Shown: piece after piece, positions 6,262-58,288 of the stretch
Layout: each line of letters opens with the position of its first letter
How positions within the stretch are numbered: the stretch's first letter is position 1
From: a bacterium
Lineage (GTDB): Bacteria; Bacillota; Clostridia; Oscillospirales; Oscillospiraceae
DNA: 64,000 bases
Assembly (NCBI GenBank): GCA_963590455.1
Contig: CAVAPH010000001.1
Location: 4,777 to 68,776, forward strand
Direction: 5' to 3'
Translations under genes and position numbers: made by a program
The notes under the pieces: generated by a model
Databases searched by the model: none
Told to the model about the DNA's origin: nothing
What the model saw: only the letters and a program-made list of their open reading frames with translations

Positions 6262-7314
6262 TCAGAGCTTATCCGTAAGCTTGTTGACATGCGGCTTGAG
6301 CCAACCGCTGATGAGATGCAGAATCCATGCCGTAACGAATACCTCTGCGATGGTTATCACGGCCTCAAGCCATACGTTGCCGAGCTTTCCTATGATCGTC
6401 AGGCAGCCCTCGACAAATATCATGTGCACAAGATAGACATCGTACGAGAGCGTATCCGTCGTGTCGAAAATCTTCTTTGTCCAGTCCGGCCACTTTACGG
6501 AGCGGGTGAGTATAAAGAGCGTGAGGAAGACGCCAAGCCCGAAGGTCACAACGCCGTACTCAAAGAGAAATACGAAAAGATAATATACCGCGGTGGATAC
6601 CTGCCCGCCGACACTGTCATAGTAATAAAACTTGTACCAGTAGGTCAGCACGGTCAGTGCCACGCCGACAACTGCGCTTATAAGCCACAGAAGACGCAGC
6701 TTTTTCTCATCCTTTATCTCCGGCAGGAAGAAGCCGATGACATAGCAGCTCAGCCAGTATGCCATGAAGTACGACTCATATGATTTGAGCAGCACCTCCA
6801 TCGCGGCAATGAGCAGAATCACGCCGGCGAGCATGCAGTTTTTTGCGCGGAAGTATTTCTTCAGATCATAGAGCGCGGGCGTTACCATGTAGCAAAGCAG
6901 GCAATGGCAGACATACCACAGGTGATGCACACCCTGCCAGCCGCTTCTTGTCAGCAGCATTTTATATATATTGCTGCCCGTCAGATTCTCCGGCGCAACG
7001 AAGTAATAGACAGGGATTATCAGCAGAAATACGCACAGATAATAATCAAGCAGTATTTTTACAAAGTTTTTCAGAACAAAGCTCACGCGGGAGCCGGGCT
7101 CATCAAAGCTCTTGTGTGCGTAGAGATAGCCGCTGAGCAAAAGAAAAATCTGCACTGCGGTTGAGAGAAGATTTGCCGTTATCTCATGCCCCGCCTGCTG
7201 GAACATGTGGCAGGTGAGAAGAGAGAACATGGCAAGAAAGCGCATCAGGCTGAGAGAATAGTTTTTAACGCGCGGAGCACGCACTGCTCCGTCCGCAGCT
7301 TGCAGTGTACCCAT
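6262..7314 (-). CDS. Acyltransferase family 3 (OafA/NolL-type membrane O-acyltransferase)
   Basis: 350 aa, about 10 TM. N-terminal LMRFLAMFSLLTCH resembles the Acyl_transf_3 signature with its conserved His. It lies next to the deacetylase. Confidence 0.7.
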   Translation of the reverse strand: MGTLQAADGAVRAPRVKNYSLSLMRFLAMFSLLTCHMFQQAGHEITANLLSTAVQIFLLLSGYLYAHKSFDEPGSRVSFVLKNFVKILLDYYLCVFLLIIPVYYFVAPENLTGSNIYKMLLTRSGWQGVHHLWYVCHCLLCYMVTPALYDLKKYFRAKNCMLAGVILLIAAMEVLLKSYESYFMAYWLSCYVIGFFLPEIKDEKKLRLLWLISAVVGVALTVLTYWYKFYYYDSVGGQVSTAVYYLFVFLFEYGVVTFGLGVFLTLFILTRSVKWPDWTKKIFDTTDTLSYDVYLVHMIFVEGCLTIIGKLGNVWLEAVITIAEVFVTAWILHLISGWLKPHVNKLTDKL

Positions 7315-7541
7315 TGGAGATCACGTCCGTTTCTGTATTCATGCATCAAATTTACCGTGATATTATAACAGCCGCCGCAGAAAAAAGCTATAGTTATATT
7401 TGAGCGAAAAAGCCCGCGCAAATCGCAATCAGCCGAGCAAGAGTGACATATTTTGCCCGACTGAAAAATATAAGCAAAAAACATAAGTAAAGAGATAAGT
7501 TAAAACAGCGCTAAGATTACCGGAGAAGAATATAAAAACTG

Positions 7542-7570
7542 TTGACAGATACTGCAAGGTAAAATATAGT
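7542..7570 (+). promoter_or_regulatory. Sigma-70-type promoter
   Basis: TTGACA (7542-7547), 17-nt spacer, TATAGT (7565-7570). It lies about 230 nt upstream of the lipoprotein gene at 7802. Confidence 0.6.
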
Positions 7571-7801
7571 AAAAACAGGATAAATAACAAGAAATGCATT
7601 AAATAAAAAATTTGAAAAAGGGCTGAGATGAATGAAGATCACAAAGTACAAAATAGAGGGGGCGATTCCGGTGGGCTGAATACAATATATAACTATTATA
7701 TTGCTCAAGGAGTGCAGATTTCGGGGTACGTATATACAGAATATTTGCAACCGTGATTTAGGACGCAGATATACATCAAAATTACAGGAGCGGCGGCCAA
7801 A

Positions 7802-9882
7802 ATGAAAAAAGTAATTTTATACGTGATTATTGCTGCACTTGCTTTGTCAATGCTGGCTGCCTGCGGAAACTCAGGTGAGACACAGCAGAAGGCGCAGGGG
7901 GAAGTCGGCAGTATCAGTTCAACCGGCGAATGGATAGGCAGCGGCAAATGCTATAGGGCAGAAAACGTTGAAAGTCTGCCAAATGTAACTGATATGCTGT
8001 GGATTGATCAGAATATATATTCCGTGGCCACATATGGTCAGGGACAATATGCACTGGCCAAAAACGGCAGTATTATTTACACGTTTCAGGGAAGTGTATA
8101 CGGGATTGATTCAACAGAAGCCGGAGAAATTTGGACGATCGAAGAGATATATACCGACGGAGAAGGCGACTACATTGTCAGCTGCTTGTCTGATGAAGGA
8201 ACGGTAATAAAGCAGTACAGCTTGGGATCGGAATACAGCGGGGAGAGCTTCAGCCAAAAAATGCGCCGTGCGGCAACAGCCTGTATATCGAATCATCGGA
8301 CATGCGCACGCTTGTCTGCATTGATGCATTGACCGGCGAAGTGTGTTCAGTCTCAATGCCGTCGGGTAAAGCAAGCATGGCAAGAGGGGCAGACGGTCAG
8401 ATTTATGCTGCCGAACAATCGGCGGACGGCGTTAAAGTGTATCTCTTTGACCGGCAGGAACAGAGCTTCACTCTCAAATTCGAGACTCAAAACGGCAAAC
8501 TGCTCGATGGCAGCGGCGACTTTCTGCTGCTTAGTGCAAACGATGACGGCCTTTATTCAATTGGCAATGACGGAAAAACAACGCCGATAATTATATGGGA
8601 CGAATGCGGCATCAATTTGGGCGAAATATACCGGCTATTTATCGAAAGCAACGGTGAAATGCTTTGCCACAGCCTTTTTGGGCTGAAAAAACTTGTGCCT
8701 GCAGAACCGGCAGAGATAAATATAAAAGAAAAACTGGAGATAGCCGGAATAGGTGCGTCATATGAGCTTCAATTGAAGGCAGCACAGTTCAACAATGCCA
8801 GCGATAAATATTATGTCAAGATAGTTGATTACTCTGATGACGGAGTGTTTGATGATGATCAGGCACTGACCAGATTAAATACGGAAATTCTCAGCGGGCA
8901 TGTTCCTGATATGATTTGCTTTAAAAATATTTCGCCTTATCCGTATATAAGCAATGCGCTGCTTGTAAATCTTAACGAGCTGCTTGCAAATGACGCGGAC
9001 ATTCATCGCGAGGATATAGCTGTCGTAAATGCACTGGAGCTGTCGGGAAAAATGTATTATATAAGCGATGGCTTTAATCTGGAGACATATGTCGCAAGAT
9101 ATTCCGAATTCGGCGACCATTTTGGCTGGACGCTTGATGAATATTCGGATGCCGACGACAGAAACGGCTCGGACACGCAAACTCTCTACAACATGACAAA
9201 GGAAGTCTTTTTAGAAAATCTTGCGTGCAGGTATTTCAGCCGGGCAGTGGACTGGAGCAATATGAGCTGTGATTTCAACACTGAAGATTTTGCCGAAATT
9301 CTTGAGTTGAGCGCAAAAATATCCGAAACACCGGAAGACTCGGACAGCATGGTGTACGGCTACGGCCCCACAATGGTGGGAACGGGTTATTTAACAGCGG
9401 CTGCCTCATGGGTGAACAGTGTTTGGAAGTTCGCGTACGAGGAAAAAATGGCCGGCTGCAGATTGAGCTGCATCGGCTGGCCATCGAGTGACGGAAGCTG
9501 CGGATCTGATGTCTATTTAGATAATCCCCTGGGAATTGTCAGCTGCGGCAGCAACATATCCGGCTGTTGGGAGTTTATAAAATATCTTCTGCTGAATTTC
9601 AATGAAAATAGTGACTTGCTGCCTATGTATATGCCGACACTTGAACGCGCGGCCGCCTATGCGAGAAACGACAGTAGCCTTCCCGTGCAGTTTACTCAGG
9701 CAGATGAGGAACGTTTTTTCAATCTTTTATCAGAGGTCAATAATACTGCGCTTTATGACGATACACTGAAAAATATAATAATGGAGAACAGCTCCGCATT
9801 TTTGAACGGAGACCGTTCACTGGATGAGACAATAAAATTAATACAGTCAAAAGCAAGCCTGTATTTAGCTGAGCTTGGCTGA
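7802..9882 (+). pseudogene. Frameshifted paralog of the large solute-binding lipoprotein at 42787..45267
   Basis: Track ORFs 7802..8332 (lipobox LAACGNSG) and 8302..9882 form one gene broken at an A6 run (8256-8261). Adding one A gives ..ESFSQKNAPCGNSLYIESSDMRTLVCIDALTGEV.. and a 693-aa product. The C-terminal half aligns by eye with the 826-aa protein (TEILSGHVPDMICF vs TEILAGNTPDILDL). Confidence 0.7.
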
Positions 9883-9891
9883 GTGAAAATC

Positions 9892-9930
9892 GGGGCACGA
9901 ATACCTGCAGGTGCCCAGCTTATATTTTTT
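9892..9930 (+). terminator. Putative terminator after the lipoprotein gene
   Basis: GGGGCAC..12-nt loop..GTGCCC, then AGCTTATATTTTTT. The T-run starts 8 nt after the stem, so this is only moderate. Confidence 0.45.
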
Positions 9931-9980
9931 CACCATCACCGCGTATATCACATTGCTGCCTGTTAAATCGGCGACAATCG

Positions 9981-10009
9981 TTGATATACGCGGTTTCATC
10001 TGTTATACT
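9981..10009 (+). promoter_or_regulatory. Sigma-70-type promoter of glyQS
   Basis: TTGATA (9981-9986), 17-nt spacer, TATACT (10004-10009). This leaves a leader of only about 60 nt. Confidence 0.55.
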
Positions 10010-10075: not shown

Positions 10076-11512
10076 ATGAAAAACACAGAAAAAACAATGG
10101 ACAAAATCGTTGCGCTTTGCAAAAACCGCGGCTTTATTTTCGCCGGCAGCGAGATTTACGGCGGCCTTGCAAACACCTGGGACTACGGCCCCCTCGGCGT
10201 AGAGCTGAAGAACAACGTAAAACGCGCATGGTGGAAGAAGTTCGTTCAGGAGAACCGCTACAATGTCGGTCTGGACGCCGCCATACTGATGAACCCGCAG
10301 ACATGGGTTGCTTCCGGCCACCTGAGCGGATTTTCCGATCCTCTTATGGACTGCCGCGAGTGCCATGAGCGCTTCCGCGCAGACAAGCTCATTGAGGAGT
10401 GGGCAAGCGAGACCGGCTTTGAGCTGGCAAAGCCCATTGACGCTTTCTCTCAGAGCGAGATGAAGGACTTCGTCGAGGAGCACAATATTCCCTGCCCGAC
10501 CTGCGGCAAGCACAACTTTACCGATATACGCCAGTTTAACCTTATGTTCAAGACCTTCCAGGGCGTCACTGAGGATGCGAAGAACACCGTTTACCTCCGC
10601 CCGGAAACTGCGCAGGGTATATTCACAAACTTTGTCAATGTTCAGCGCACCACCCGCCGCAAGCTGCCCTTCGGCATCGGCCAGATAGGCAAGTCCTTCC
10701 GCAACGAGATCACCCCGGGCAACTTCATTTTCCGCGTGCGTGAGTTCGAACAGATGGAGCTTGAGTTCTTCTGCGAGCCGGGCACCGACCTTGAGTGGTT
10801 CGACTACTGGCGCAGCTTCTGCCATGAGTTCCTGCTCTCCATCGGCCTGAAGGATGAGAACCTCCGCTTGCGCGACCATGACCCGGAGGAGCTGTGCTTC
10901 TACTCCAAGGCCACCACGGACTTTGAATTCCTCTTCCCGTTCGGCTGGGGCGAGCTGTGGGGCGTTGCTGACCGTACCGATTACGACCTTACTCAGCATC
11001 AGACCGTGTCCGGTCAGGATCTGACATATTACGATCAGGACAAGAACGAGCACTACATTCCCTATGTTATCGAGCCTTCTCTCGGTGTTGAGCGTACCGT
11101 GCTGAGCGTGCTGTGCGACGCATATGATGAAGAAGTCGTCGGTCAGGACAAGAAGGGCAACGACGATGTCCGCACCGTGCTGCATCTGCACCCGGCACTG
11201 GCTCCGTTCAAGTGCGCCATCCTGCCGCTGAGCAAGAAAGAGATACTCACCGGCCCCGCACTCGAGCTGTATCAGGAGCTGAGCAAGGAGTTTATGTGCG
11301 ATTACGACGAGACCGGCTCCATCGGCAAGCGCTACCGCCGCGAGGACGAGATCGGCACTCCGTTCTGCATCACCTTCGACTTCAACACCGTCGGCACCGA
11401 GACGGACGAGGCAGACCACTGCGTCACCGTACGTGAGCGCGACAGCATGACTCAGGTCCGTATCCCCATCAGCGAGGTCAAGGATTACATTTCCGAGCGC
11501 ATCAAGTTTTGA
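10076..11512 (+). CDS. glyQS: Glycine--tRNA ligase (homodimeric class II type)
   Basis: Start moved to ATG 10076 ([22 protein letters not shown]); the track start at 9911 is a GTG inside the terminator region. Motifs: [18 protein letters not shown] and [25 protein letters not shown]. Confidence 0.95.
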
Positions 11513-24885: not shown

Positions 24886-26238
24886 ATGTCCCACACTTTT
24901 AAAGGCGGCGTGCATCCTAATTACATGAAGGCACCGGAAGTTCCGATGACCGTCATTGCACCGCCACCTCAGGTAATCATCCCTATGGCACAGCACATAG
25001 GCGCTCCCTGCACCCCCACGGTCAAAAAGGGTGACTATGTGAAAATGGGTCAGGTCGTCGGCACAAACCCGGCACCCGTATCAGCTCCGGTACACGCTTC
25101 TGTGTCCGGCACAGTTGTTGCGGTAGAGCCTCGTCCCCATCCCCTGGGCGACATGATCATGTCCGTAGTCATTGAAAATGACTACAAAGATGAACTCTGC
25201 ACGGATATGGCCCCTCTCACTGAAGAGCAGCTGCACGACGGCGAAGCGATACTTGCACGTATCCGCGATGCCGGTGTCGTCGGTATGGGCGGCGCAATGT
25301 TCCCGACCGCATTCAAGATCCGCGGCGGTCTTGGCAAGGTCGACACGCTCATCATCAACGGCGCAGAATGCGAGCCGTATCTGAACGGTGACCATCTCAC
25401 CATGAAGAACTACCCCGAGCAGCTTCTCAAGGGCATTGAGCTTGTGCGCATTGCTTCCGGCCTTGACAAAGCCTACTACGGCATTGAGGTCAACAAGCAG
25501 GACGCTATAGACCTGCTCAATTCCTATCATCCCGAGAAGTACGGCATTGAGATCGTCCCCGAAGCGGTCAAGTACCCGCAGGGCGGCGAGAAGATGCAGG
25601 TTAAGGCAATCACCGGCCGCGAAGTCAAGCCCGGCGGAATCCCCTCCGGCGTCGGCTGCAACGTCGTGAGCACCCGTACCTGCTATGCCATCTACCAGGC
25701 CTGCTATGAAGGAAGACCGGTCATCGACCGTATCGTCACTGTCGCAGGCAGCGCACTTCAGGCACCTGTCAACGCACTCACCCGCGTCGGAACTCCGTTC
25801 GGTTATCTCGCAGAGGCATGCGGCGGTTTCGTCCGCACCCCGCGCAAGATAGTCCTCGGCGGCCCGATGATGGGTATTTGCGCAACCGACTTTGATGCAC
25901 CCACCATTAAGGGCACGGCCGGCGTGCTGTTCTTCACTGAGAAGGAAGACAAGCATGTTGAAGAGCCGACCTGCATCCGCTGCGGCAAGTGCATTTCCGT
26001 CTGCCCGATGAACCTTGAGCCTGTATTCATGTACATGTACTACAGCAAGGGTGACTTTGAGAACATGCAGAAGTATCACATTACCGACTGCTTTGAGTGC
26101 GGCAGCTGCGCATACAACTGCCCCGCAAGAATGCCTCTTACCCACGCGTTCAAGACGGCAAAGCTCATGTTCCAGGCCAAGGCAGCTAAGGAAAAGGCCA
26201 AGGCTGAAGCAGCAGCCGCAAAGGAGGCAAATAAATGA
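24886..26238 (+). CDS. rnfC: Rnf electron transport complex subunit C
   Basis: 450 aa. Two 4Fe-4S motifs, CIRCGKCISVCP and CFECGSCAYNCP. First gene of a cluster in C-D-G-E-A-B order. Confidence 0.95.
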   Translation: MSHTFKGGVHPNYMKAPEVPMTVIAPPPQVIIPMAQHIGAPCTPTVKKGDYVKMGQVVGTNPAPVSAPVHASVSGTVVAVEPRPHPLGDMIMSVVIENDYKDELCTDMAPLTEEQLHDGEAILARIRDAGVVGMGGAMFPTAFKIRGGLGKVDTLIINGAECEPYLNGDHLTMKNYPEQLLKGIELVRIASGLDKAYYGIEVNKQDAIDLLNSYHPEKYGIEIVPEAVKYPQGGEKMQVKAITGREVKPGGIPSGVGCNVVSTRTCYAIYQACYEGRPVIDRIVTVAGSALQAPVNALTRVGTPFGYLAEACGGFVRTPRKIVLGGPMMGICATDFDAPTIKGTAGVLFFTEKEDKHVEEPTCIRCGKCISVCPMNLEPVFMYMYYSKGDFENMQKYHITDCFECGSCAYNCPARMPLTHAFKTAKLMFQAKAAKEKAKAEAAAAKEANK

Positions 26239-27275
26239 ACGACAATAAAGTAAAAATCGTACTTGACGTTGCGTATCAGCCTCAGGTAAGAACCGAGACC
26301 GATACAAGACGCATCATGATGGACGTTATCATCGCCCTCATGCCGGCGCTTATCGTCTCCATCTTCCAGTTTGGCTGGCGTCCTCTCGGTGTCGCAGTGG
26401 TTTCCATGCTCTCCGCTGTGTTCTTTGAGTGGGCATACCGCAAGCTCCTCAAGAAGAGCAATACCATCGGTGACTGCTCCGCAGCCGTTACCGGTCTGCT
26501 CATGGCAATGACCATGCCTCCCACGTCTCCGCTGTGGCTCCCGATCGTCGGCAGCTTCTTCTCGATAGTCATCGTCAAGCAGCTCTACGGCGGCCTCGGC
26601 AAGAACTTCCTCAACCCCGCACTTGCAGGCCGTGCATTCCTCATTGCTTCCTATGCAAACCACATGACCTCCTGGGCAGTCCCCAACGGACTCAAGGGTG
26701 TTGTTGATGCAACCACCATGGCAACCCCGATGACTTACATGTACACCGGCGAGGCTATGCCCGAGTATCTCTCCTTCACCAACATGTTCCTCGGCAACAT
26801 GCCCGGCTGCATTGGTGAGATAAGCTCTCTTGCACTGCTCATCGGTGTTATCTACCTCTTCGTCCGCAAGGTCATAACCTGGCGTATTCCCACCTCCTTC
26901 ATCGCGACCGTCGTTATTCTTACCTTCGTATTCGGTCACGAGGGATACAGCCGCATCGAGTGGGTCGGCTACAACATCTTCGCAGGCAGCCTTCTCCTCG
27001 GCGCATTCTTCATGGCAAACGACTATGCTACCAGCCCTGTTACCGGCCCCGGCCAGATCATATACGGTATCGGCTGCGGTGCTATAACCGTGCTTATCCG
27101 TTACTTCGGCAGCTACCCCGAAGGCGTCAGCTATGCAATCCTCATCATGAACCTGTGCACATGGGCAATTGATAAGGCATTCTGCCGCCCGCAGTTCGGC
27201 GTCACAAAAGAGGATCTCGCCGCTCAGAAGGCAGCAAAGAAAGCCGCAAAGGCTGCGGCAAAGGAGGGCGCATAA
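26235..27275 (+). CDS. rnfD: Rnf complex subunit D
   Basis: 346-aa polytopic membrane protein. ATGA overlap with rnfC. NqrB/RnfD-like sequence. Confidence 0.9.
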   Translation: MNDNKVKIVLDVAYQPQVRTETDTRRIMMDVIIALMPALIVSIFQFGWRPLGVAVVSMLSAVFFEWAYRKLLKKSNTIGDCSAAVTGLLMAMTMPPTSPLWLPIVGSFFSIVIVKQLYGGLGKNFLNPALAGRAFLIASYANHMTSWAVPNGLKGVVDATTMATPMTYMYTGEAMPEYLSFTNMFLGNMPGCIGEISSLALLIGVIYLFVRKVITWRIPTSFIATVVILTFVFGHEGYSRIEWVGYNIFAGSLLLGAFFMANDYATSPVTGPGQIIYGIGCGAITVLIRYFGSYPEGVSYAILIMNLCTWAIDKAFCRPQFGVTKEDLAAQKAAKKAAKAAAKEGA

Positions 27276-27823
27276 TGAATAAAGTAGTAAAGCTTGCTCT
27301 CGTGCTGTTCCTTGTCTGCGCTGTTGTTGCAGGTATTCTGGGCGCAGTCAATCTCATCACTTCCGACAAGATAGCAGAGCAGGATGCACTGACGACAAAA
27401 GCCGCATATGCCGCCGTTCTCGCAGCTGACAGCTACGAGGATGTAGAGTTTGATCCGACTGCGGAAGGCTTTGAGACCATCGACAAGATAGTCAAGGCCG
27501 ATGGCGACAAGGGTTACGTTGTCACCACCACATTCTCCGGCGCACAGGGCAGCATCACCATGGCTGTCGGTGTCGATATGGACTACAAGTGCACCGGCAT
27601 TTCCATCATCTCGCACTCTGAGACTTCCGGCCTCGGCGCGAAGGCAGCAGATACCGGTGAGTTCGGTACCAACTGGCGTGCAGAGTTCGTCGGTGAGGGC
27701 GATGACATCGCAATCACCAAGAAGGGCGGCAACATTGACGCAATCACTGCCGCGACCATAACCTCCAACGCTGTTACCGGTGCCGTTTCCACCAGCATCA
27801 AGGCAGTCGAATCTTTGGGCTAA
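27275..27823 (+). CDS. rnfG: Rnf complex subunit G (FMN-binding)
   Basis: 182 aa. N-terminal TM anchor. FMN_bind-type region ..SHSETSGLG... TAATG overlap with rnfD. Confidence 0.9.
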   Translation: MNKVVKLALVLFLVCAVVAGILGAVNLITSDKIAEQDALTTKAAYAAVLAADSYEDVEFDPTAEGFETIDKIVKADGDKGYVVTTTFSGAQGSITMAVGVDMDYKCTGISIISHSETSGLGAKAADTGEFGTNWRAEFVGEGDDIAITKKGGNIDAITAATITSNAVTGAVSTSIKAVESLG

Positions 27824-27837
27824 GGAGGCAAAGCTGA

Positions 27838-28530
27838 ATGAATATCAAGAAACAGTTCAAAGAAGGCCTCATCACCAATAACCCCGTTCTCGTTCAGCAG
27901 ATCGGTATGTGCGCCACCATGGCAATCACGACCTCTCTGTTCAACGGTCTGGGCATGGGCCTGTCCGTTCTCATAATTCTCACCTGCTGCAACGTGGTTA
28001 TTTCCGCAATGCGCAAGATCATCCCTGAAGAGATACGTCTGGCAATATTCGTTGTCGTTATCGCGGGCTTTGTTACCATCGTTGACCTGCTGCTGCAGGC
28101 GTACGTTCCGGCACTGAGTTCTGCACTGGGCGTGTTCATTCCCCTTATAGTTGTTAACTGCATCATCATCGGCCGTGCAGAGGCATTCTGCCAGCACAAC
28201 CCCGTCGGCCCGTCCTTCTTCGACGGCATATTCCAGGGCCTCGGCTACACCTGCGTGCTTGTTATCATGTGCATCGTGCGTGAGTTCCTCGGCTCCGGTC
28301 GTTTCGGCGGCGGCCTTATCGACATCGCAAACGGCTTCCGCATCACTCTTGACGGTACCGGCTCCGGTATCCAGCTGTTCGCAGAAGACTTCGGCGCAAC
28401 CATACTCATCATGCCCTTCGGCGGATTCCTTACTCTTGGTATGCTGATCGCATTGATGCAGTACGCACTCAAGAAGTCCGCAAAGAAAAAACAGCTTGCC
28501 GAAGAAGCTGCAAAGGAGGCTGAAGAATAA
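27838..28530 (+). CDS. rnfE: Rnf complex subunit E
   Basis: 230-aa, 6-TM NqrD/RnfE-like protein in the canonical position. Confidence 0.9.
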   Translation: MNIKKQFKEGLITNNPVLVQQIGMCATMAITTSLFNGLGMGLSVLIILTCCNVVISAMRKIIPEEIRLAIFVVVIAGFVTIVDLLLQAYVPALSSALGVFIPLIVVNCIIIGRAEAFCQHNPVGPSFFDGIFQGLGYTCVLVIMCIVREFLGSGRFGGGLIDIANGFRITLDGTGSGIQLFAEDFGATILIMPFGGFLTLGMLIALMQYALKKSAKKKQLAEEAAKEAEE

Positions 28531-29114
28531 TGCTTACAAATATTCTCTCCATCTCCCTCGGTGCAATACTCATAAACAACTTCATTTTCTCGCAGTTCCT
28601 CGGCTGCTGCCCGTTCCTCGGCTGCTCCAACAAGGTTGACACCGCAGTCGGCATGGGCCTTGCAGTTACCTTCGTTATGGGCCTTGCATCCGCAATCTGC
28701 TGGGTTATCGACCAGTATGTCCTCGTGGCACTCGGCCTCGAGTTCCTGCAGACCCTCACGTTTATTCTTGTTATCGCAGCTCTCGTGCAGTTCGTTGAGA
28801 TGTTCCTGAAGAAGATGGTTCCGTCTCTCTACTCCGCACTGGGCATTTACCTCCCGCTTATCACCACCAACTGCGCTGTTCTCGGTGTTGTTCTTCTGAA
28901 CGTTCAGAATGGCTACAACTTCATCGAGTCCGTTGTCTACGGCATCACCGGCGGTCTCGGCTTCATGCTCGCTATCGTCCTGTTCTCCACCGTACGTGAG
29001 CGCGTTGAGTTTTCCGATTACCCCGAGTGCTTCAAGGGATTCCCGATCTGCCTTGTTTCTGCAGCTCTGCTTGCACTTGCATTCATGGGCTTCAGCGGCA
29101 TGCAGATATTCTGA
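28530..29114 (+). CDS. rnfA: Rnf complex subunit A
   Basis: 194-aa, 6-TM NqrE/RnfA-like protein. TAATG overlap with rnfE. Confidence 0.9.
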   Translation: MLTNILSISLGAILINNFIFSQFLGCCPFLGCSNKVDTAVGMGLAVTFVMGLASAICWVIDQYVLVALGLEFLQTLTFILVIAALVQFVEMFLKKMVPSLYSALGIYLPLITTNCAVLGVVLLNVQNGYNFIESVVYGITGGLGFMLAIVLFSTVRERVEFSDYPECFKGFPICLVSAALLALAFMGFSGMQIF

Positions 29115-29132
29115 TAGGGAGGACGTAACAGT

Positions 29133-29942
29133 ATGAAATCAATTCTTTTCTCCATCCTGGTGCTGGGCGTCCTCGGCGGCCTTTTCGGTGCGCTGCTCGC
29201 ATATGCCTCCAAGATATTCCACGTTGAAGTAGACCCCAAGCAGGAACAGGTTCGCGCCTGCCTCGCCGGTGCAAACTGCGGCGGCTGCGGCTACCCCGGC
29301 TGTGACGGTTACGCTGCTGCTGTTGCGGCAGGCAAAGCCCCCACCAACAAGTGTGTTGCCGGCGGCGCAGAGACTGCTGCCAAGGTCGCGGCAATCATGG
29401 GCGTTGACGGTGCTGCCGCTGAGAAGATGGTTGCATTCGTGCCCTGCTCCGGTACTGCCGGTCATGCACAGATGCGCTTCAACTACTCAGGTCCTGTTGA
29501 CTGCCGCGCTGCAATGCTGTTCGGCGGCAAGAGCAACAAGGAATGCACCTTCGCCTGCATTGGTCTCGGCAACTGCACCCGTGTCTGCCAGTTTGACGCA
29601 ATTCATGTTGTTGACGGCGTTGCAAAGGTCAACCGTATGCGCTGTGTCGGCTGCGGCGCCTGCGCAGATGCATGCCCGAAGAGCATCATAAAGCTCATCC
29701 CCGAGAGCCAGAAGGTCATGCCCGCTTGCAGCAACCACGACAAGGGCGCGAAGGTCATGAAGATGTGCGACTACGGCTGCATCGGCTGCATGAAGTGCCA
29801 GCGCGAGTGCCCTGCAGACGCTATCGTCGTTGTGGATAACCTCGCACAGGTTGACGCATCCAAGTGCGTCGGCTGCGGCCACTGCGCTGATGTCTGCCCC
29901 AGACATATCATCAACTGGTTCGGCAAGAAGAGCCAGAATTAA
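29133..29942 (+). CDS. rnfB: Rnf complex subunit B (polyferredoxin)
   Basis: 269 aa. N-terminal [11 protein letters not shown] Fe-S domain, then several CxxCxxCxxxCP motifs. Confidence 0.9.
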
Positions 29943-29974: not shown

Positions 29975-30010
29975 ACACGCAGAGTGCATCGCCGCTCTGC
30001 GTGTTCTTTG
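29975..30010 (+). terminator. rnf operon terminator hairpin 1
   Basis: 10-bp stem ACACGCAGAG / CTCTGCGTGT, then TCTTTG. Its loop and 3' arm contain the left copy of the 19-bp direct repeat. Confidence 0.6.
29987..30005 (+). repeat. Direct repeat, left copy (CATCGCCGCTCTGCGTGTT)
   Basis: 19/19 identical to 32605-32623 in the same orientation. Confidence 0.95.
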
Positions 30011-30017
30011 CAATTTT

Positions 30018-30072
30018 GCTCCGCGACAACGTATAATTTCACGTGTCGCGGAGCGTTTTGCGTTTATTTTTT
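30018..30072. terminator. Hairpin 2 between rnfB and the convergent TetR gene
   Basis: 11-bp perfect stem GCTCCGCGACA / TGTCGCGGAGC, followed on the + strand by GTTTTGCGTTTATTTTTT. Confidence 0.7.
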
Positions 30073-30097
30073 AGTGCCGGACTTGAAATGTGAGACG

Positions 30098-30673
30098 TTA
30101 TTTTGCTTGTATCTCAAGATTTTCAAGCTTTACCAGTACCTTCAGAATATTCTTAAGCATATCTGCCGGAGAGAGAGCAATATCGTTTGAAAGCCACCAT
30201 TCTATAATTCCGGACAGAGCAGATGCTTTTAACTGTATTGTAAACTCGTTTTCAAGTGCATCACTGTCAGAAAGCGGCTTTGCACCCTGCGTAATAATTT
30301 TGCTTATAACAGCTTTGAAACGCGGTTGAAAATAAGGGCTGTTTTCTTTTTTGAACAGGATTCTGAATTTATCTCTTTTGTCGTAAAGACAGGAAAGAAC
30401 TATCGAGAGACAATGCTCTATTTCGCTGAATTCGGGTGCATGCAAAAGTATTCCTGACTGTTCATACAGATCCTTAAGCAGGTCATCTATGTACTCATCA
30501 AGAAGAGCATACTTGTCGACAAAATGCAGATAAAAAGTTGAGCGATTAATATTCGCAAGCTCAGCAATTTCATTGATGCTTATTTTTTCAAAAGGCTCTT
30601 TATCAAGAAGCGAGTTAAAGGCATCCATGATATATTTTCTTGTTCGCAGGTAACGTCGGTCTGTTTTATTCAT
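30098..30673 (-). CDS. TetR/AcrR family transcriptional regulator
   Basis: Start moved to ATG 30673 (MNKTDRRYLRTRKYIMDAFNSLL..ISINEIAELANINRSTFYLHF, TetR_N HTH). Confidence 0.85.
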   Translation of the reverse strand: MNKTDRRYLRTRKYIMDAFNSLLDKEPFEKISINEIAELANINRSTFYLHFVDKYALLDEYIDDLLKDLYEQSGILLHAPEFSEIEHCLSIVLSCLYDKRDKFRILFKKENSPYFQPRFKAVISKIITQGAKPLSDSDALENEFTIQLKASALSGIIEWWLSNDIALSPADMLKNILKVLVKLENLEIQAK

Positions 30674-30704
30674 ATCAAATCTCCTAATAGACACTTTCTG
30701 AAAA

Positions 30705-30722
30705 ACGTTGCATATACAACGT
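30705..30722. promoter_or_regulatory. Candidate TetR operator 1 (16/18 palindrome ACGTTGCATATACAACGT)
   Basis: Imperfect palindrome 32 nt upstream of the TetR ATG. It shares the 9-mer GTTGCATAT with the second palindrome. Confidence 0.45.
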
Positions 30723-30785
30723 ACAGCAATAATCAACGATTGAAAGAGCAATACACAACTACTATAGTATAGACGACGTGATACT

Positions 30786-30802
30786 GATATGCAACACATA
30801 TC
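30786..30802. promoter_or_regulatory. Candidate TetR operator 2 (GATATG-N5-CATATC)
   Basis: 6-bp inverted arms. It contains GTTGCATAT on the minus strand (30787-30795). About 105 nt upstream of the hydratase-like gene. Confidence 0.4.
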
Positions 30803-30907
30803 TATTATTTAGCTTCACGAGAATTATCCTGACGGATGATTAAAAAAGTATTCAGCATCTTTGCTGAGCTTGTACGCGACAAAAATACAAGTGGAGGGAC
30901 GATAATT

Positions 30908-31873
30908 ATGACAGACCAAAAGTATCCGACGTTTACGAATGTTCATTCGGATATGAAGACTAAGCCGGAAAAGACGACAGATTCCTGGTATCTTAGAACA
31001 AATTTTATTGCAGACGGACATACTATAGGCTTTGAGTGGCATCAGATGGTGGTTCGCCCGCTGCCGATGTTCAGCATGAGCGTGATGGATTTCCTGGTGA
31101 TGGACGCGACGGATGATATATATCTTTCACATGATTTTTCAGGAAAAGCAAGCGCGTCTAACGGACCGGCAAAGGGGAAATGCTGCGTAAACTCAAAGTA
31201 CGGCAGCTTACAGGGTGACGAAAACAAGCTGCGGCTGGATTTGAAGGCGGATGACAGTGAGGTCCACGTGGAAGTGTATCCGCGAAAGGTTATACATAAC
31301 GGCTGCACAGGGCTGCTGCCGCTTGCGGGATTAAATTCGTATCAGTTCTCTTTCCCAAATGCCGATATAATCGGAACCGTGGTAATCAGAGGAAAAGCGT
31401 ATCGCGTAGAGAATGCTGTTGCATGGTTTGACCGTCAATGGACAAAGGCATCAATTAAAGATGTGGAAGCACCTCATTGGTTATGGCTCGGAATGAACCT
31501 GAACAAAGAAAAGACCGTTTCAATGTCTGCATGGGATGTTGTAAAGGACAGAGACAAGTGGGGCTGCTTTGCCACAATTGTTGACGAGAATGATATTCAT
31601 TCCCTGCACCCGATCGATATTAGCTACAGTGAGCTTTGGGACAGTAAGCTGACAAGTAATAAATATCCGAAGAGCTTTCATGTAAGCATTCCTACGGCGG
31701 ATACGGAGATAAATTTCACGGTACTGCAGAAAGATCCCGAATTTTTTAAGGGCTTCGGCAAGTTTGCGATGGGCGGAAGTCAGGCTCTTTGCAAGGCCAC
31801 GGGACATTACAAAGACGAGAGCGTTGATTCAATAGAGATTGTTGAAGTGCTCGGAGACTTTGCAGATAAATAA
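30908..31873 (+). CDS. CrtC/AttH-like lipocalin-fold protein (carotenoid 1,2-hydratase / kievitone hydratase superfamily)
   Basis: Start moved to ATG 30908 (GGAGGG upstream). AVAWFDRQWT and HWLWLGMNL match the AttH/CrtC hallmark W-F-D-x-x-W region as I remember it. No signal peptide. Confidence 0.65.
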   Translation: MTDQKYPTFTNVHSDMKTKPEKTTDSWYLRTNFIADGHTIGFEWHQMVVRPLPMFSMSVMDFLVMDATDDIYLSHDFSGKASASNGPAKGKCCVNSKYGSLQGDENKLRLDLKADDSEVHVEVYPRKVIHNGCTGLLPLAGLNSYQFSFPNADIIGTVVIRGKAYRVENAVAWFDRQWTKASIKDVEAPHWLWLGMNLNKEKTVSMSAWDVVKDRDKWGCFATIVDENDIHSLHPIDISYSELWDSKLTSNKYPKSFHVSIPTADTEINFTVLQKDPEFFKGFGKFAMGGSQALCKATGHYKDESVDSIEIVEVLGDFADK

Positions 31874-31899
31874 TAGGTCCGAAAGGAAAACAAAAGCGT

Positions 31900-32532
31900 A
31901 TGGAATTTTGCGGAACGATTCTCGTCGGTATCAGCGGAATTGCCTGGACGATTGTGTATATTGAGCTGATCCGGCAGGGAAACCGGGACAAGGCATGCGG
32001 AATGCCGCTGTTTGCTTTGACATTAAATCTGGCGTGGGAGTGGATCTACGGCATTGACGGCCTGTTTATCAGCAGGTCATTTATTCCTGCTCAATCTGTT
32101 GCCAATATAGCTTGGGCAGTTTGCGATATTTTCGTGATGATGACCTGGGTAAAATACGGTAAGCAGTATCTCCCCAAAAGAGCAGAGAAGTATTTTGTGC
32201 CATATACAATTTTAGCTACAGCCTTCGGCTTTGCCATGCAGCTAGCGCTCTATTTTAATTGTGAAACGGTTGAAATCGCTTCGATATACTCCGCATTTCT
32301 TCAGAACGCAGCTATGTCCGTGATGTTTGTCACGATGCTGTTTTCAAGAGATGACACCAGGGCACAAACCTTGCTGATAGCCGTCTGCAAATGGATTGGA
32401 ACACTGGCACCGACTGTTTACGGACAAATAAACGGGAACGCTGTGTCCGGATTTATTCTTATCACCGGGATTGCGTGCAGTGTTTTTGATATAATTTATA
32501 TTCTGCTGCTGTATGAAAGAAAACGGATATGA
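31900..32532 (+). CDS. 7-TM integral membrane protein, possible Pyr4/PaxB-type membrane terpene cyclase
   Basis: 210 aa with seven hydrophobic segments. RDKACGMPLFALTLNLAWEWIYG resembles the Pyr4/PaxB motif YGM..PL..N.AWE..Y (catalytic Glu). FDIIYILLLY in the last helix resembles the conserved Asp region. Comparison is from memory only. Confidence 0.4.
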   Translation: MEFCGTILVGISGIAWTIVYIELIRQGNRDKACGMPLFALTLNLAWEWIYGIDGLFISRSFIPAQSVANIAWAVCDIFVMMTWVKYGKQYLPKRAEKYFVPYTILATAFGFAMQLALYFNCETVEIASIYSAFLQNAAMSVMFVTMLFSRDDTRAQTLLIAVCKWIGTLAPTVYGQINGNAVSGFILITGIACSVFDIIYILLLYERKRI

Positions 32533-32604
32533 CAGACAAGCTTCTGATACGGGCGTAATTTTAATTAATATATAAATATAAAGGCCGGTCAGCTTAGATT
32601 TCAT

Positions 32605-32623
32605 CATCGCCGCTCTGCGTGTT
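32605..32623 (+). repeat. Direct repeat, right copy (CATCGCCGCTCTGCGTGTT)
   Basis: 19/19 identical to 29987-30005. There is no complementary 5' arm upstream, so this copy is not a hairpin. Confidence 0.95.
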
Positions 32624-32714
32624 TTGCTATTGCTATATTTATATAATATTTCTTGACTTTGAAAATATAACGGAGTATTTTGAGAAAAACATAATAGCAC
32701 GGAGGCATAGTATT

Positions 32715-33191
32715 ATGATCTTTGCAAAGCTGAACGCAAACGGTGAGAAACACGTATATCCCGAAGCTATCGAGAAGGCGCTTGATTTTATAAGCAATAC
32801 TGATTTCATGCAGCTTAAACCAGGTAAATATATAATAGACGGCGATAAGATGTTTGCAAACGTTATGGATATGACGACGCACGGCTTTGAGGGCTCACAT
32901 CCGGAAGTACACAAAAAATACGCCGATCTTATGTATTGGCCGGAGGACGGTGAAATTATTGGTGTCGCGCCTAATCTCGGCAGCGAGAAAATATTCGAGT
33001 CACACCCGGAGAATGATATCGCCCTTCTTGAAGACGTTGTGAATGAAAGCTATATCACGGCAACCGCTGGCTGCTTCGGCGTGTTTTTCCCGTGGGATGC
33101 ACATCGACCCGCACTTATGATGGGCGATAGTCCTGCTACAAGCAGAAAATGCGTAATTAAAATCAGTATGGAGCTTTTTGACAGAGCTTGA
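32715..33191 (+). CDS. YhcH/YjgK/YiaL family protein (DUF386)
   Basis: Start moved to ATG 32715 (GGAGG upstream). MIFAKLNANGEKHVYPEAIEKALDFI..GKYIIDGDKMFANV..EVHKKYADL pattern of the family. Confidence 0.7.
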   Translation: MIFAKLNANGEKHVYPEAIEKALDFISNTDFMQLKPGKYIIDGDKMFANVMDMTTHGFEGSHPEVHKKYADLMYWPEDGEIIGVAPNLGSEKIFESHPENDIALLEDVVNESYITATAGCFGVFFPWDAHRPALMMGDSPATSRKCVIKISMELFDRA

Positions 33192-33212
33192 TGTTGAGCA
33201 TATAAAAAATAT

Positions 33213-33262
33213 AACGTTTGCCGCGAGCATATGAGTATAGAAGCATGCGGCAAGCGTTTTTT
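33213..33262 (+). terminator. Rho-independent terminator
   Basis: Stem AACGTTTGCCGC / GCGGCAAGCGTT (with mismatches) followed by TTTTTT. Confidence 0.7.
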
Positions 33263-33358
33263 AATTATTTCGTGATTATTTGCGGTTGACCGTATTATGT
33301 TTTAATGATAAAATAAAACGTCAAATTATGTACATGAAGTGACCTTCGGAGAGAGCAA

Positions 33359-50590: not shown

Positions 50591-51268
50591 TTATATCTGG
50601 TGTATGAGATTTGCCTTTGCGCGGGGCTTCGGATATGCGATGAGATACGCAACGATGCACAGCGGGAGGGACGCGACCACGTCTATGACAGAGTGCTGCT
50701 TCATGAACACCGTGGAGATGCTTATCAGTATGCAGCACGCCACGTTGACAATGCGCCAGCCTGTGCTTGAGAATCGCGGCGTATACCACAGCGCGTACAT
50801 AGCTGCAAACGAGCCGATCACGTGCAGCGAGGGGCAGACGTTCGTGTCCGTGTCGAAGGTATAGAATAACGCTATGAACTGCGTGAGTATGTTGTCGCGC
50901 TCAAAGCTTGTAGGCCGCAGGTGCTGGCAGTTCGGGAAGACGAGGTATACAAGCAGCGTCGCCGAATAGCTGATGATTATAAACCACATCATCTTTCTGA
51001 AGTTTGCCACATCGCAGAGAAAGACGTATACAACCGCGCCCGTCAGGTAGACAAACCAGAACAGATACGGGATAAGAAACCACTCGCAAAACGGAATCAT
51101 ATCATCAAGCGCGCAGTGAACAACGAGATAGGCGGCCGGATGATAAACCCGTTCGACGAAGAAAAACATAAGCCCGTATATCGGCCAGTAGAGCAGCAGC
51201 TTGAAATGACTGTACTCCGGTGTTCCGAGCTTGTCAAATGAAAAATTACGCAGATCGGTCTTGTTCAT
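50591..51268 (-). CDS. PAP2-superfamily membrane protein (PAP2_3 / phosphatidyl-transfer type)
   Basis: 225 aa, 6 TM. CPSLHV and KQHSVIDV resemble the PAP2 C2/C3 motifs. Overlaps the upstream glycosyltransferase gene by 23 nt. Confidence 0.6.
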   Translation of the reverse strand: MNKTDLRNFSFDKLGTPEYSHFKLLLYWPIYGLMFFFVERVYHPAAYLVVHCALDDMIPFCEWFLIPYLFWFVYLTGAVVYVFLCDVANFRKMMWFIIISYSATLLVYLVFPNCQHLRPTSFERDNILTQFIALFYTFDTDTNVCPSLHVIGSFAAMYALWYTPRFSSTGWRIVNVACCILISISTVFMKQHSVIDVVASLPLCIVAYLIAYPKPRAKANLIHQI

Positions 51269-52376
51269 GATTATCCATCACCTTGTAAATACATTCTGCC
51301 GGTGTCTCCGTGCCGGTACCTCTGAGCGCCGCGGACATCTCACTGCGCCGCTGAGCGTCATTTATGAGCTCTATCGCAGCCGCTGCAAGTCCGTCGGGCG
51401 TGTCGGCAGTTACCGCGCCGCCGCAGCCGGTGAAATATTCTAAATTGTGAGATTCGCAGCCCGCAACCGCATCGACAAGCACCATCGGCAGGCCCATAGC
51501 TGCGGCCTCCGTCGTGCTCAATCCGCCGGGCTTTGTTATATACACATCTGCCGAGCGCATGTAAAGCGGCATGTTGCTGACCTTCGCCTCAATGTGCACG
51601 TGGGGATTCATATAAAACGCATCGTAGAGCTGCTCGTGGAGCTTCTCGTTGCTGCCGCATATTACGGTCAGCTCCGCATCAACCGGCAGCAGTGCGGAGA
51701 GCTTTTCGGTCAGCTCCGCCATCGGCCCGCAGCCCATGCTGCCGCACATCATGAGAATGTGGCTGTGCTCATGCGGAATGCCGAGCATACGCTTTGCCGC
51801 GTCCCTGTCGCCCTCGGTGTAGAACTGCGCCCTTGCGGGAAGACCGCTTGCGATGATTTTTTCCGCAGGCACGCCGCAGTATTCAAACTCCTCGCGAAGC
51901 GCCTCCGCCGGAATGAAGTAATATTGCAGAGCCGAGTCCGCCGTGCCGGGGGAGCAGGTGTAGTCCGTTGCGACGAAAGCCGTCTTGATCGGCAGGTGAT
52001 GCTTCTCCATCATCGCGGTCAGTGCGAGCGCTGCGAATATGTGCGTGCAGATGACGCAGTCATAGCCGCCTTTGCGGATGTATTTATACAACCTTTCAGA
52101 CCCCGAAGTCAAGTACTCATATATTAAAGTATCCTTCTGGAACGGGGAAGCGTGCTTTTCCACCTCGTCGTAGCCGCTTTTGAACAGCCGCGGGAGGTGC
52201 CGGTATATGCGCACATGCCAGTTGCATATGAACTTGGATGCCTTTTTAGAGATAAACGAGAGCGAGTCCGTTATGTCGCAGGGCACGCCGTGTGCCTCGA
52301 AGCACTCCTTGAGCGCCCTTGCGCAGGAGTTATGCCCCTCGCCTGTGTTGGCGCTGAGTATGAGGGTACGCTTCAT
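51246..52376 (-). CDS. Diacylglycerol glycosyltransferase (MGDG-synthase/UgtP-like, GT28 family)
   Basis: MKRTLILSANTGEGHNSCARAL N-terminus typical of MGDG_synth-domain proteins. C-terminal GT-B motif ITKPGGLSTTEAAAMGLPMV. Confidence 0.8.
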   Translation of the reverse strand: MKRTLILSANTGEGHNSCARALKECFEAHGVPCDITDSLSFISKKASKFICNWHVRIYRHLPRLFKSGYDEVEKHASPFQKDTLIYEYLTSGSERLYKYIRKGGYDCVICTHIFAALALTAMMEKHHLPIKTAFVATDYTCSPGTADSALQYYFIPAEALREEFEYCGVPAEKIIASGLPARAQFYTEGDRDAAKRMLGIPHEHSHILMMCGSMGCGPMAELTEKLSALLPVDAELTVICGSNEKLHEQLYDAFYMNPHVHIEAKVSNMPLYMRSADVYITKPGGLSTTEAAAMGLPMVLVDAVAGCESHNLEYFTGCGGAVTADTPDGLAAAAIELINDAQRRSEMSAALRGTGTETPAECIYKVMDNHEQDRSA

Positions 52377-52861
52377 TTGCCACCTCCGCTGCGTCTGCTG
52401 CGGTGATCAGCGAGTCTTTGCAGCCGCGGGCGGTTGTAGCGCTGAATAATAATAAACGGCAGGTTGCCGAAGAGAACATATACCGCGGCGATGATTATAC
52501 CGCCGACGCCCGGCCATATGAACGGGAACGCGACAGCGCACACGCACAGCAGTACATGTGTCAGCTCCGCAACGCAGGTCTCCTGCAGCATGCGCGGCAG
52601 ATCCGCGAGCGTGTCGGACGTTATGCGCTTTTCCGGCATGATGCGCTTGAAAATGCGGCTCATATCCGGAACCTTGCTCTGCCAGTCCTTCACGCGCAGA
52701 AGCTTGTGCAGCTTTGCCTCTTTTTCGTGGCACTTAAACGGAAACGCATCGCTGCGAAACCACGTCTTCGGAACAAGCCGCCCTATTACGAAGGACAGCA
52801 CGCCCAGAGCCGCCGCGTATATAAGGCAGCCGATAAAGCCTGATATTTTTCTCTTTTTCAT
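52373..52861 (-). CDS. CrtO-like membrane acyltransferase (glycosyl-4,4'-diaponeurosporenoate acyltransferase family)
   Basis: Start moved to ATG 52861 (GAGG upstream); the track start 52873 is a TTG. ETCVAELTHV and IIQRYNRPRL match the S. aureus CrtO motifs E..AEL.HW and VQRYNRPRL as I remember them. ATGA overlap with the glycosyltransferase gene. Confidence 0.6.
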   Translation of the reverse strand: MKKRKISGFIGCLIYAAALGVLSFVIGRLVPKTWFRSDAFPFKCHEKEAKLHKLLRVKDWQSKVPDMSRIFKRIMPEKRITSDTLADLPRMLQETCVAELTHVLLCVCAVAFPFIWPGVGGIIIAAVYVLFGNLPFIIIQRYNRPRLQRLADHRSRRSGGGK

Positions 52862-53082
52862 ATTTTTCCTCAACTAAGCTCTCTTGTTAAAAATATATTT
52901 TCCCAACAAATAATCTAACATCATATTAGCAACGCTGCGTCAACCTAATATCAACGTTTCGTGAACTTTGGTTGAAATGAGGTTTATTTTGGCAGATTAT
53001 AATGAAATCCTAAAGAAATATTAATAATCCGGCATTATTCCCGGAATAAAATGCGTAATTAAATATACAGGGAGGAGAAACG

Positions 53083-57787: not shown

Positions 57788-58012
57788 ATGGATATACATG
57801 AGAAAATAGATCTGCAGGCCTGCCCTTACTGCGGCGGCGCGGGACTTCTTGAAGAGGAAAACGGCTGGTGCTGGTACGTCATGTGCATGGACTGCGGCTC
57901 ACAGACCGCGGCGTTTGAATACAGTAACGAGCAGGAGAGCGAGGAGGCGGCCCGCACGGCTGCGCATCTCTGGAACATCGGCAAGGTCGTCCGCGGGGAC
58001 ATCGGAGAATAA
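57788..58012 (+). CDS. Lar-family zinc-ribbon protein
   Basis: 74 aa. CPYCGG..CMDCGS..AA.LWN layout, as in Lar (restriction alleviation) family small proteins. Confidence 0.55.
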   Translation: MDIHEKIDLQACPYCGGAGLLEEENGWCWYVMCMDCGSQTAAFEYSNEQESEEAARTAAHLWNIGKVVRGDIGE

Positions 58013-58030
58013 ATAATATATAAATATAAA

Positions 58031-58060: not shown

Positions 58061-58099
58061 GCATATTCGCTTAAAAATTTATATTTTTATCGGTTCAGA

Positions 58100-58288
58100 T
58101 CAGTTGTGCTTGCTTTCACATTCGGCGATGACCTTGGAAGCTGAGACGCTTGCAATATAGCCGAAGCCGAGAGCTGCGAGACCAAATACGTTGACAACAA
58201 CCCCGGAGACTGAACCCATCATGTAGCTTGAGAAGCCTGCAAGAAGGGTGCCAACGATAAGAGCGAAGACGAAAATATTGTTTTTCAT
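58100..58288 (-). CDS. Small two-TM hydrophobic protein, copy A
   Basis: 62 aa. AAGGAGGAT SD. 55/62 identical to copy B. Confidence 0.7.
   Translation of the reverse strand: MKNNIFVFALIVGTLLAGFSSYMMGSVSGVVVNVFGLAALGFGYIASVSASKVIAECESKHN

Follow-up and report, generated by a model that had tools for sequence, protein, structure and literature searches.

The described systems closest to the locus analysed here are the cis-mobilizable elements (CIMEs), as defined previously (PMC5704250), and the attachment-site (att) integration of phages and genomic islands. The locus is a 2,599-bp islet of exactly three genes (positions 30006-32604) that lies between rnfB and yhcH in a 64-kb stretch of an Oscillospiraceae genome (assembly GCA_963590455.1, contig CAVAPH010000001.1; 64,000 nucleotides, hereafter the window). 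Like a CIME, the islet lies between identical direct repeats, one of which completes the 3' end of the target feature, it carries no integrase, excisionase, relaxase or transfer gene, and an empty site with a single copy of the core exists in the same species. It differs from a CIME in that no integrative and conjugative element or integrative and mobilizable element is known to use this att site, nothing is left of a recombination or transfer module, the target is a species-specific intrinsic terminator rather than the 3' end of a conserved gene or tRNA, and the islet is, at 2.6 kb, far smaller than the CIMEs described. With the att sites of phages and genomic islands it shares the length range of the core (19 bp), the direct repeats and the repair of what the insertion interrupted (in this case the 3' arm of the terminator), whereas those elements carry their own integrase beside att and target conserved genes, and the islet has no integrase and a non-conserved hairpin as its target. 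Region 30006-32604 is taken, with moderate confidence, to be a foreign cassette that entered the rnfB terminator in a single old insertion, in one lineage of an uncultured gut species of Oscillospiraceae, and was left there by site-specific integration as a CIME-like, att-flanked islet. The mobile-element side of the locus is textbook-like, and the islet is of an ordinary, already known kind.

YhcH, the product of the right-flanking gene, had no record identical to the protein of the window, and conspecific contigs were obtained via the members of its 90%-identity cluster. Their flanks were 96-98% identical to the window, which assigns them to one species with it. An empty site with a single copy of the 19-mer CATCGCCGCTCTGCGTGTT was present in nine contigs, each of a different sample (L091-L098 and L109; ERZ272792xx, SRR11880814); in these, yhcH started 148 nt after rnfB and the terminator ran directly into the yhcH promoter. 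The empty junction read ...ACACGCAGAGTG-CATCGCCGCTCTGCGTGTT-TTGCTTTGTTTATATAAT.... BLAST alignments of the empty contigs to the window ended at 30005 and restarted at 32605. The islet was found at the same site in five further contigs (L001, L090, L107, L108 and L114), giving six filled sequences including the window, and each sample had one allele only. The filled samples include ERZ27245998, ERZ27245999, ERZ27246004 and ERZ27246013. The ENA contigs had been assembled with k=119 or k=141 (names k119_, k141_), so that the assembler could not have collapsed a 19-bp repeat. An initial sequence-only reading of the window had placed the islet between copies of a duplicated target or att core and had predicted that empty sites would show the rnfB terminator joined directly to the yhcH promoter. 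The exact breakpoints support the first claim and the nine empty contigs bear out the second: the first 25 of 30 predicted junction bases were identical (GCATCGCCGCTCTGCGTGTTTTGCT), and the remainder corresponds to local strain polymorphism, the window having an extra TTGCTA. The same contigs speak against the alternative that all relatives carry the three genes at this position. Contig L002 was uninformative, as it ends at the 5' arm of the hairpin.

Beyond the species, no empty site was readable among the GTDB species representatives collected via RnfB (80 loci). The closest of them, UBA5888 (RnfB 90% identical in amino acids), has a different terminator and different downstream genes, and the rnfB terminators of sister species are unrelated and followed by different genes, which indicates that the junction is variable. 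The upstream boundary of the rnf operon appears to vary as well, since UBA5888 (L003, 850-5743) has about 4.9 kb between the gene of a Crp-like regulator and rnfC, which are adjacent in the window (24515 and 24886).

The two copies of CATCGCCGCTCTGCGTGTT in the window are identical at 19 of 19 positions and read in the same direction (Table 1). No further copy was found in the 64 kb with up to 3 mismatches allowed. Shuffling gave an expectation of 0.04 matches, with two or more matches in 0 of 100 shuffles, and, a 287-nt tandem duplication near 58 kb excepted, the pair is the longest perfect direct repeat of the window. Outside the insertion site itself, no copy within 3 mismatches was present in 1.5 Mb of fetched related loci. 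Scans for the 19-mer returned seven exact matches in JGI metagenome contigs and a single one in IMG/VR, all in unrelated sequence contexts, and these eight look like chance. The repeat pair was also recovered from the filled contig L001, and it was reduced to 18/19 in L090 and 17/19 in L114; the first base of the left copy is changed from C to A in both L090 and L114, and position 5 of the right copy from G to T in L114. That the repeats are due to chance, belong to a REP-like element with many copies or were produced by the assembly, with the three genes being ordinary core genes, is so improbable as to be negligible. A perfect 17-mer (CACCGTACGTGAGCGCG) does recur in unrelated coding regions, at 11425-11441 (a class II tRNA synthetase gene) and 28988-29004 (rnfA); its sharing is probably due to chance, and it indicates that GC-rich coding sequence raises the expectation of exact matches somewhat. 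The 19-bp repeats, however, match the ends of an indel polymorphism to the base in 15 independent assemblies, they occur only twice in the window, and the assembly k-mers were longer than the repeat.

The insertion has split the terminator of rnfB within its hairpin, so that the loop, the 3' arm and the first base of the tail now stand on both sides of the islet. In the window, positions 29975-29986 pair with 29993-30004, and the surrounding 81-nt stretch folds with -28.9 kcal/mol (z = -4.2). The left repeat begins exactly with the first base of the loop, i.e. at the stem/loop border, and ends one base past the stem. The surroundings of the right copy fold no better than shuffled sequence (z = +0.3) and form no hairpin. 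Together with its T tract, the right copy thus constitutes an orphan half-terminator, which implies that the intact empty terminator preceded the filled state. The perfect direct repeats, the identity of the left copy with the loop and 3' arm of the terminator and the lack of a matching 5' arm at the right copy had all been described in the sequence-only reading and are confirmed here, with one further base added to the left copy; the multi-copy element that it had envisaged as an alternative was not seen in the window or the related loci fetched. In the empty allele, a hairpin of 15 pairs with a 6-nt loop is followed by the T-rich sequence TTTTGCTTTGTTT and was scored as a canonical terminator by the terminator scan. 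In the filled allele of the window, the T tail after the left copy is weakened (TCTTTGCA) and the scan made no call there. A second hairpin with a T tract is carried by the islet itself, between the left repeat and the end of tetR; its 70-nt stretch folds with -29.8 kcal/mol (z = -6.2; 0 of 200 shuffles equally stable), and it includes a terminator-like scan match at 30047-30062 followed by TTTATTTTTT. This hairpin probably terminates read-through from rnfB and may terminate tetR from the opposite side.

Under site-specific integration, the terminator (attB) would have undergone conservative recombination with an identical 19-bp core on a circular donor, catalysed by a recombinase that acted in trans or was encoded on a larger element since deleted. 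AttL and attR would have been left around a cargo-only, CIME-like remnant that was inherited vertically thereafter and would no longer be detectably mobile; were it mobile, the circular junction would read TTTCAT-CATCGCCGCTCTGCGTGTT-CTTTGC (TTTCATCATCGCCGCTCTGCGTGTTCTTTGC). This route is favoured because the length of the core is typical of att sites, the interrupted feature is restored, the hairpin is core-like and a related cassette (L103, see below) lies beside integrase and Xis genes. By analogy, the 12-6-12 geometry of the hairpin resembles the core site of a tyrosine recombinase, with the identity starting at the loop border.

Several observations weigh against this route. Neither the islet nor any other part of the 64-kb window contains a recombinase or transposase gene, and no integrase-bearing element with the 19-mer was found in JGI metagenome contigs or IMG/VR. 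The sequence on the element side of the right copy (TTAGATTTCAT) is no mirror of the 3' arm, unlike in a symmetric core site. The related cassettes in L099, L100 and L103 have no flanking repeats; the closest cassette is 72% identical in DNA, and no donor is known. The terminators are, moreover, species-specific, so that it has to be explained how a donor came to be equipped with these 19 bases. This difficulty does not arise with a target-site duplication, in which cuts staggered by 19 nt within the terminator, filled in after the capture of a foreign fragment, would yield the repeats without donor homology, the agent being transposase-like, casposase-like or end-joining and possibly guided by the hairpin or a cruciform. 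The 19-mer is indeed native to the terminator of the species and absent from sister species, it starts exactly at the stem/loop border, and no cognate integrase or attP was found in the JGI, IMG/VR and plasmid/phage records searched. A duplication of this kind is nevertheless considered unlikely, since the islet is without terminal inverted repeats or a transposase, no second copy of it was seen, and related cassettes lack such duplications. Fixed duplications are 2-14 bp long for nearly all DDE transposons and 14-15 bp for casposons, and 19 bp exceeds both.

Site-specific integration also has to be set against a Campbell-type, RecA-mediated integration of a circular DNA that carried the cassette together with the terminator region of the species (for example a circle excised from another strain), in which a longer homology would have decayed to 19 bp. 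Such an event would require no recombinase, and both copies continue into loosely similar T-rich motifs (TTTGC...TTGCT). The identity, however, drops abruptly on both sides in 6/6 filled sequences, although the flanks diverge by 2-4%, and an earlier copy at the same site is presupposed. Since 19 bp is also below the usual minimum for efficient RecA recombination, this origin is regarded as very improbable. Three further classes of element were considered and rejected. A DDE transposon, insertion sequence or miniature inverted-repeat transposable element does not fit the missing inverted repeat and transposase, the single copy in the window and the 19-bp duplication. An integron cassette is contradicted by the absence of an attC-like imperfect palindrome at the 3' end and by junctions unlike GTTRRRY. 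An element dependent on Xer/dif is not compatible with a site that is the terminator of a gene, and the dif sequences of Firmicutes likewise speak against it.

The composition of the islet is distinct from that of its surroundings. Its GC content is 42.4% (window, 52.2%), and it is the lowest-GC and the most tetranucleotide-deviant 2.6-kb segment of the window, with 0 of 282 non-overlapping windows as extreme; the GC content at third codon positions (GC3) of tetR (0.35) is the lowest of 54 open reading frames (ORFs). The sequence-only reading was therefore right in describing the islet as lower in GC, and the indistinguishable k-mer composition that it had named as an objection was not observed, although its figure of about 65% for rnfB was too high (59%). 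The low-GC tract, however, passes the right repeat and extends through yhcH to about 33350. With a GC3 of 0.48 (median, 0.66), yhcH is as low as the two cargo genes, yet both alleles have it and the repeats do not enclose it, and composition is thus no guide to the limits of the insert. It supports a foreign origin of the islet but does not delimit what was inserted, and in this respect it counts against the reading preferred here. The yhcH gene with its flanking spacers (32715-33350) is the most divergent stretch between strains, with about 6% in the first 500 nt. It may represent an earlier acquisition at the same junction, and acquired genes seem to have accumulated more than once downstream of rnfB, which agrees with the sialic-acid locus that encodes the closest YhcH outside the species.

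Divergence amounts to 1.9-2.1% for the islet (window, L090 and L114 compared), to 1.8% for the rnf operon (window against empty strains) and to 3-4% for the right flank. Judged by these values, the insertion is old, with no sign of current mobility, because the islet has diverged like its flanks and the repeats are drifting in L090 and L114. The sequence-only reading had held that any mobilisation occurred in trans or is ancient, and the second of these fits the divergence of about 2%. An unrooted tree of the right flank comprises three clades, formed by the window and L001, by the L090 group and by the empty strains, and twelve sites separate filled from empty strains. The window lineage stands furthest apart, differing from each of the others by 3.2-3.5%, compared with 2.5-3.1% between the L090 group and the empty strains. 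No outgroup with conserved gene order was available to place the root; the YhcH that comes nearest from beyond the species (76% identity) is encoded in a sialic-acid locus that also has a sialidase gene and a DHDPS/NanA-like gene (L110, L111). Without a usable outgroup, one gain and one precise loss would be equally parsimonious, and midpoint rooting would favour a loss in the empty clade. It is accordingly possible, if not the expected case, that the empty alleles are secondary, i.e. that the islet is ancestral to the sampled strains and that one lineage lost it by a precise deletion between the repeats, either through site-specific excision or through RecA-independent slippage. Such a loss would bear on the direction in which the polymorphism arose and does not contradict an earlier insertion. 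Midpoint rooting would render the filled strains paraphyletic and a single loss most parsimonious, the diversity of the islet (about 2%) is as deep as that of core genes, and haplotypes near the junction are common to filled and empty strains. On the other side, the tree is unrooted, the split at twelve sites fits a single gain equally well, recombination within the species can blur the topology, and no sample contained both alleles.

The features of the locus are compiled in Table 1. The order rnfCDGEAB of the left-flanking operon is also found in L001 and L091. Pfam assignments and ORFs agree with the earlier proposal that the repeats enclose a TetR gene, a CrtC/AttH-like gene and a gene for a protein with seven transmembrane helices, which fill the space between the repeats, with no integrase or transposase and no terminal inverted repeats between the islet ends. 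The window contains no tRNA, tmRNA or Rfam RNA as an integration target, and the DNA of the islet had no match among plasmid and phage records. A promoter-like site is located at 30740-30768 on the plus strand, and a GGAGG ribosome-binding site lies 8 nt upstream of the ATG at 30908; no palindrome of 10 nt or more, and hence no palindromic TetR operator, was seen in the region between tetR and the AttH-like gene. On the right flank, a promoter-like site of yhcH is found at about 32653-32681, and yhcH is followed rightward by a SAM methyltransferase gene, ecfA1-A2-T and truA.

Table 1. Coordinates of the features at the rnfB/yhcH junction (positions in the window).
Feature	Position	Strand	Remarks
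rnfB	29133..29942	+	last gene of the rnfCDGEAB operon (24886-29942), left flank; Pfam FeS and several Fer4 domains
rnfB terminator hairpin	29975..30004	+	12-bp stem (one G-U pair), 6-nt loop CATCGC
Left 19-bp direct repeat, attL-like	29987..30005	+	loop, 3' arm and one further base of the rnfB terminator
Islet-carried hairpin and T tract	30017..30072	+	hairpin 30017-30055; between left repeat and tetR end
tetR	30098..30673	-	191 aa; Pfam TetR_N 35.2 bits, TetR_C_8 43.3 bits; divergent from the two cargo genes
Divergent promoter/operator region, tetR to AttH-like gene	30674..30907	.	35% GC
AttH/CrtC-like gene	30908..31873	+	321 aa; Pfam CrtC and Lipocalin_9 above cut-offs
Pyr4-family seven-helix membrane protein gene	31900..32532	+	210 aa; Pfam PF25129
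Right 19-bp direct repeat, attR-like	32605..32623	+	orphan 3' half of the terminator, original T tract kept, without 5' arm
yhcH/DUF386	32715..33191	+	right flank, in filled and empty strains; Pfam DUF386 119.7 bits; NCBIfam TIGR00022

The two cargo proteins were assigned by profile searches and structure prediction; NCBIfam has no family for either of them, and sequence searches against the PDB gave no match. The AttH/CrtC-like protein matched CrtC (PF07143) with 35.7 bits (cut-off 22.5) and Lipocalin_9 (PF17186) with 26.8 bits (cut-off 26.2). Its AlphaFold2 model (pLDDT 90) was most similar in Foldseek searches of the PDB to AttH (2ICH; TM 0.78, E = 1e-18) and kievitone hydratase (7A0T; TM 0.76). 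It shares the two-domain lipocalin-like fold of the AttH/CrtC/kievitone hydratase family (TM 0.76-0.79) and is a soluble protein with no visible N-terminal signal peptide, differing from the solved structures in its low identity (16-18%), in the lack of carotenoid or tetraether lipid genes nearby and in belonging to a very rare lineage, for which 5.8 billion proteins contained no more than 17 relatives at E<=1e-10. The next neighbours in the PDB were the 25-phosphosteroid lyases 9FZN and 9G4C (TM 0.5-0.6), which act on the isoprenoid side chain of sterols, a likeness of the model that gives a hint that the fold handles isoprenoid substrates. The family also includes the carotenoid 1,2-hydratase CrtC (PMC12402844). 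An archaeal AttH-like hydratase, Hgs, forms hydroxy-GDGT lipids (bioRxiv 10.1101/2025.10.20.683597; PMC12402844). Judged by its modelled fold, the islet protein may hydrate isoprenoid C=C bonds independently of a cofactor.

The membrane protein matched PF25129 (Pyr4-like transmembrane terpene cyclases) with 80.8 bits (cut-off 27; E = 1.6e-22), and its AlphaFold2 model (pLDDT 91) contains seven helices of 21-29 residues, in agreement with the hydropathy profile. Bacterial Pyr4-like transmembrane cyclases include XiaH, TylF, GroF and the zigralone cyclase (PMC13307353), and the active-site residues of fungal Pyr4 are E63 and D218 (PMC6486709). E47, D76 and D197 of the islet protein are invariant in 21-23 homologues; E47 lies in helix 2 and D197 in the last helix, and these acidic residues are candidate counterparts of E63/D218. 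With the characterised cyclases it shares PF25129 and the seven helices. Those cyclases are encoded in meroterpenoid clusters with prenyltransferases and oxygenases, mostly from Actinomycetota, Cyanobacteria and fungi, whereas the islet gene belongs to a lineage of strict anaerobes and has only the TetR and AttH-like genes beside it. Among its relatives (at least 872), those named in their source records are hypothetical proteins, and one is a DMT-like permease. In the filled contig L108 (1-581), the loss of one nucleotide (CTCTATTTTATTGTG versus CTCTATTTTAATTGTG in the window) leaves the gene as two ORFs, reflecting either pseudogenisation or an assembly error. By its family match, the seven-helix protein is a putative transmembrane terpene cyclase. 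Two observations detract from this assignment: the model is weakly similar to SWEET, PQ-loop (cystinosin) and KDEL-receptor folds (TM 0.5-0.65, E>0.005), leaving a role as transporter conceivable, and no prenyltransferase or terpene synthase is encoded in the islet or its flanks.

Cassettes with TetR, one to three AttH copies and the Pyr4-family gene in this order also occur in unrelated contexts in other Clostridia (L099 and L100), and L103 has TetR and AttH copies without the Pyr4-family gene. The TetR and AttH cassette of L103 (7119-11335; 47% identity) lies beside genes for URO-D, TnpV, a Tn916-type integrase, Xis and phage-like proteins, a setting which shows that integrase-bearing elements can have cassettes of this family at their margins. 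On a Streptomyces plasmid, about 4 kb separate a TetR/Pyr4-family pair from a gene that bears the annotation 'hydroxyneurosporene dehydrogenase', and in Nostoc a homologue adjoins the gene of an isopentenyl phosphate kinase. The genes of the islet would form a self-contained unit, in which the TetR repressor controls the divergent two-gene operon of the AttH/CrtC-fold hydratase and the Pyr4-family membrane protein. By analogy with the two families, and with low to moderate confidence, the pair may protonate, hydrate or cyclise terminal double bonds of an isoprenoid lipid without oxygen.

A more far-reaching proposal is that recombinase-less cargo cassettes of an unrecognised class use terminator hairpins as attachment sites, the arms and the loop serving as the core of a tyrosine recombinase, with exchange at the loop border and regeneration of the terminator, and that AttH and Pyr4-family cargo under TetR control provides an oxygen-independent hydration or cyclisation of isoprenoid lipids (quinone tails, polyprenols or dietary terpenoids) in gut anaerobes. 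This combination is put forward as a speculation that is probably wrong in the form given.

Further features of the window were recorded in passing. The second most composition-deviant region (6600-10000; GC 0.44-0.46) contains two ORFs without Pfam match (7802-8332 and 8302-9882; GC3 0.48-0.49) and possibly represents a further acquisition. In a low-GC spacer, a stretch of about 300 nt is duplicated in tandem (58096-58683), with copies that are 87% identical and without Rfam match; each copy encodes a small hydrophobic protein of about 63 aa on the minus strand (~58288 to 58097 and 58590 to 58398), and a small Zn-ribbon-like ORF (57790-58013) lies upstream. On the minus strand at 50591-52873, genes for a PAP2 phosphatase, an MGDG-synthase-like glycosyltransferase and a CrtO-like protein (PF18927, glycosyl-diaponeurosporenoate acyltransferase family) stand in a row; by these assignments, the region is a predicted glycolipid acylation module, and the Pfam name of PF18927 also points to carotenoid-type lipids.

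With its junctions resolved to the base and both alleles present in nature, the islet is a clean example of an accessory operon that entered the boundary of a core operon without damaging it: the rnfB terminator was rebuilt and is backed by a second hairpin carried by the islet. Within this Oscillospiraceae lineage, the junction of rnfB and yhcH proves to be variable. The more useful lead lies in the cargo, which recurs in several uncultured Clostridia and is uncharacterised, and filled and empty strains of one species would allow their lipid and terpenoid profiles to be compared. Both enzyme families use acid catalysis on isoprenoid double bonds, and the pair could thus point to an anaerobic modification of terpenoids in the gut.

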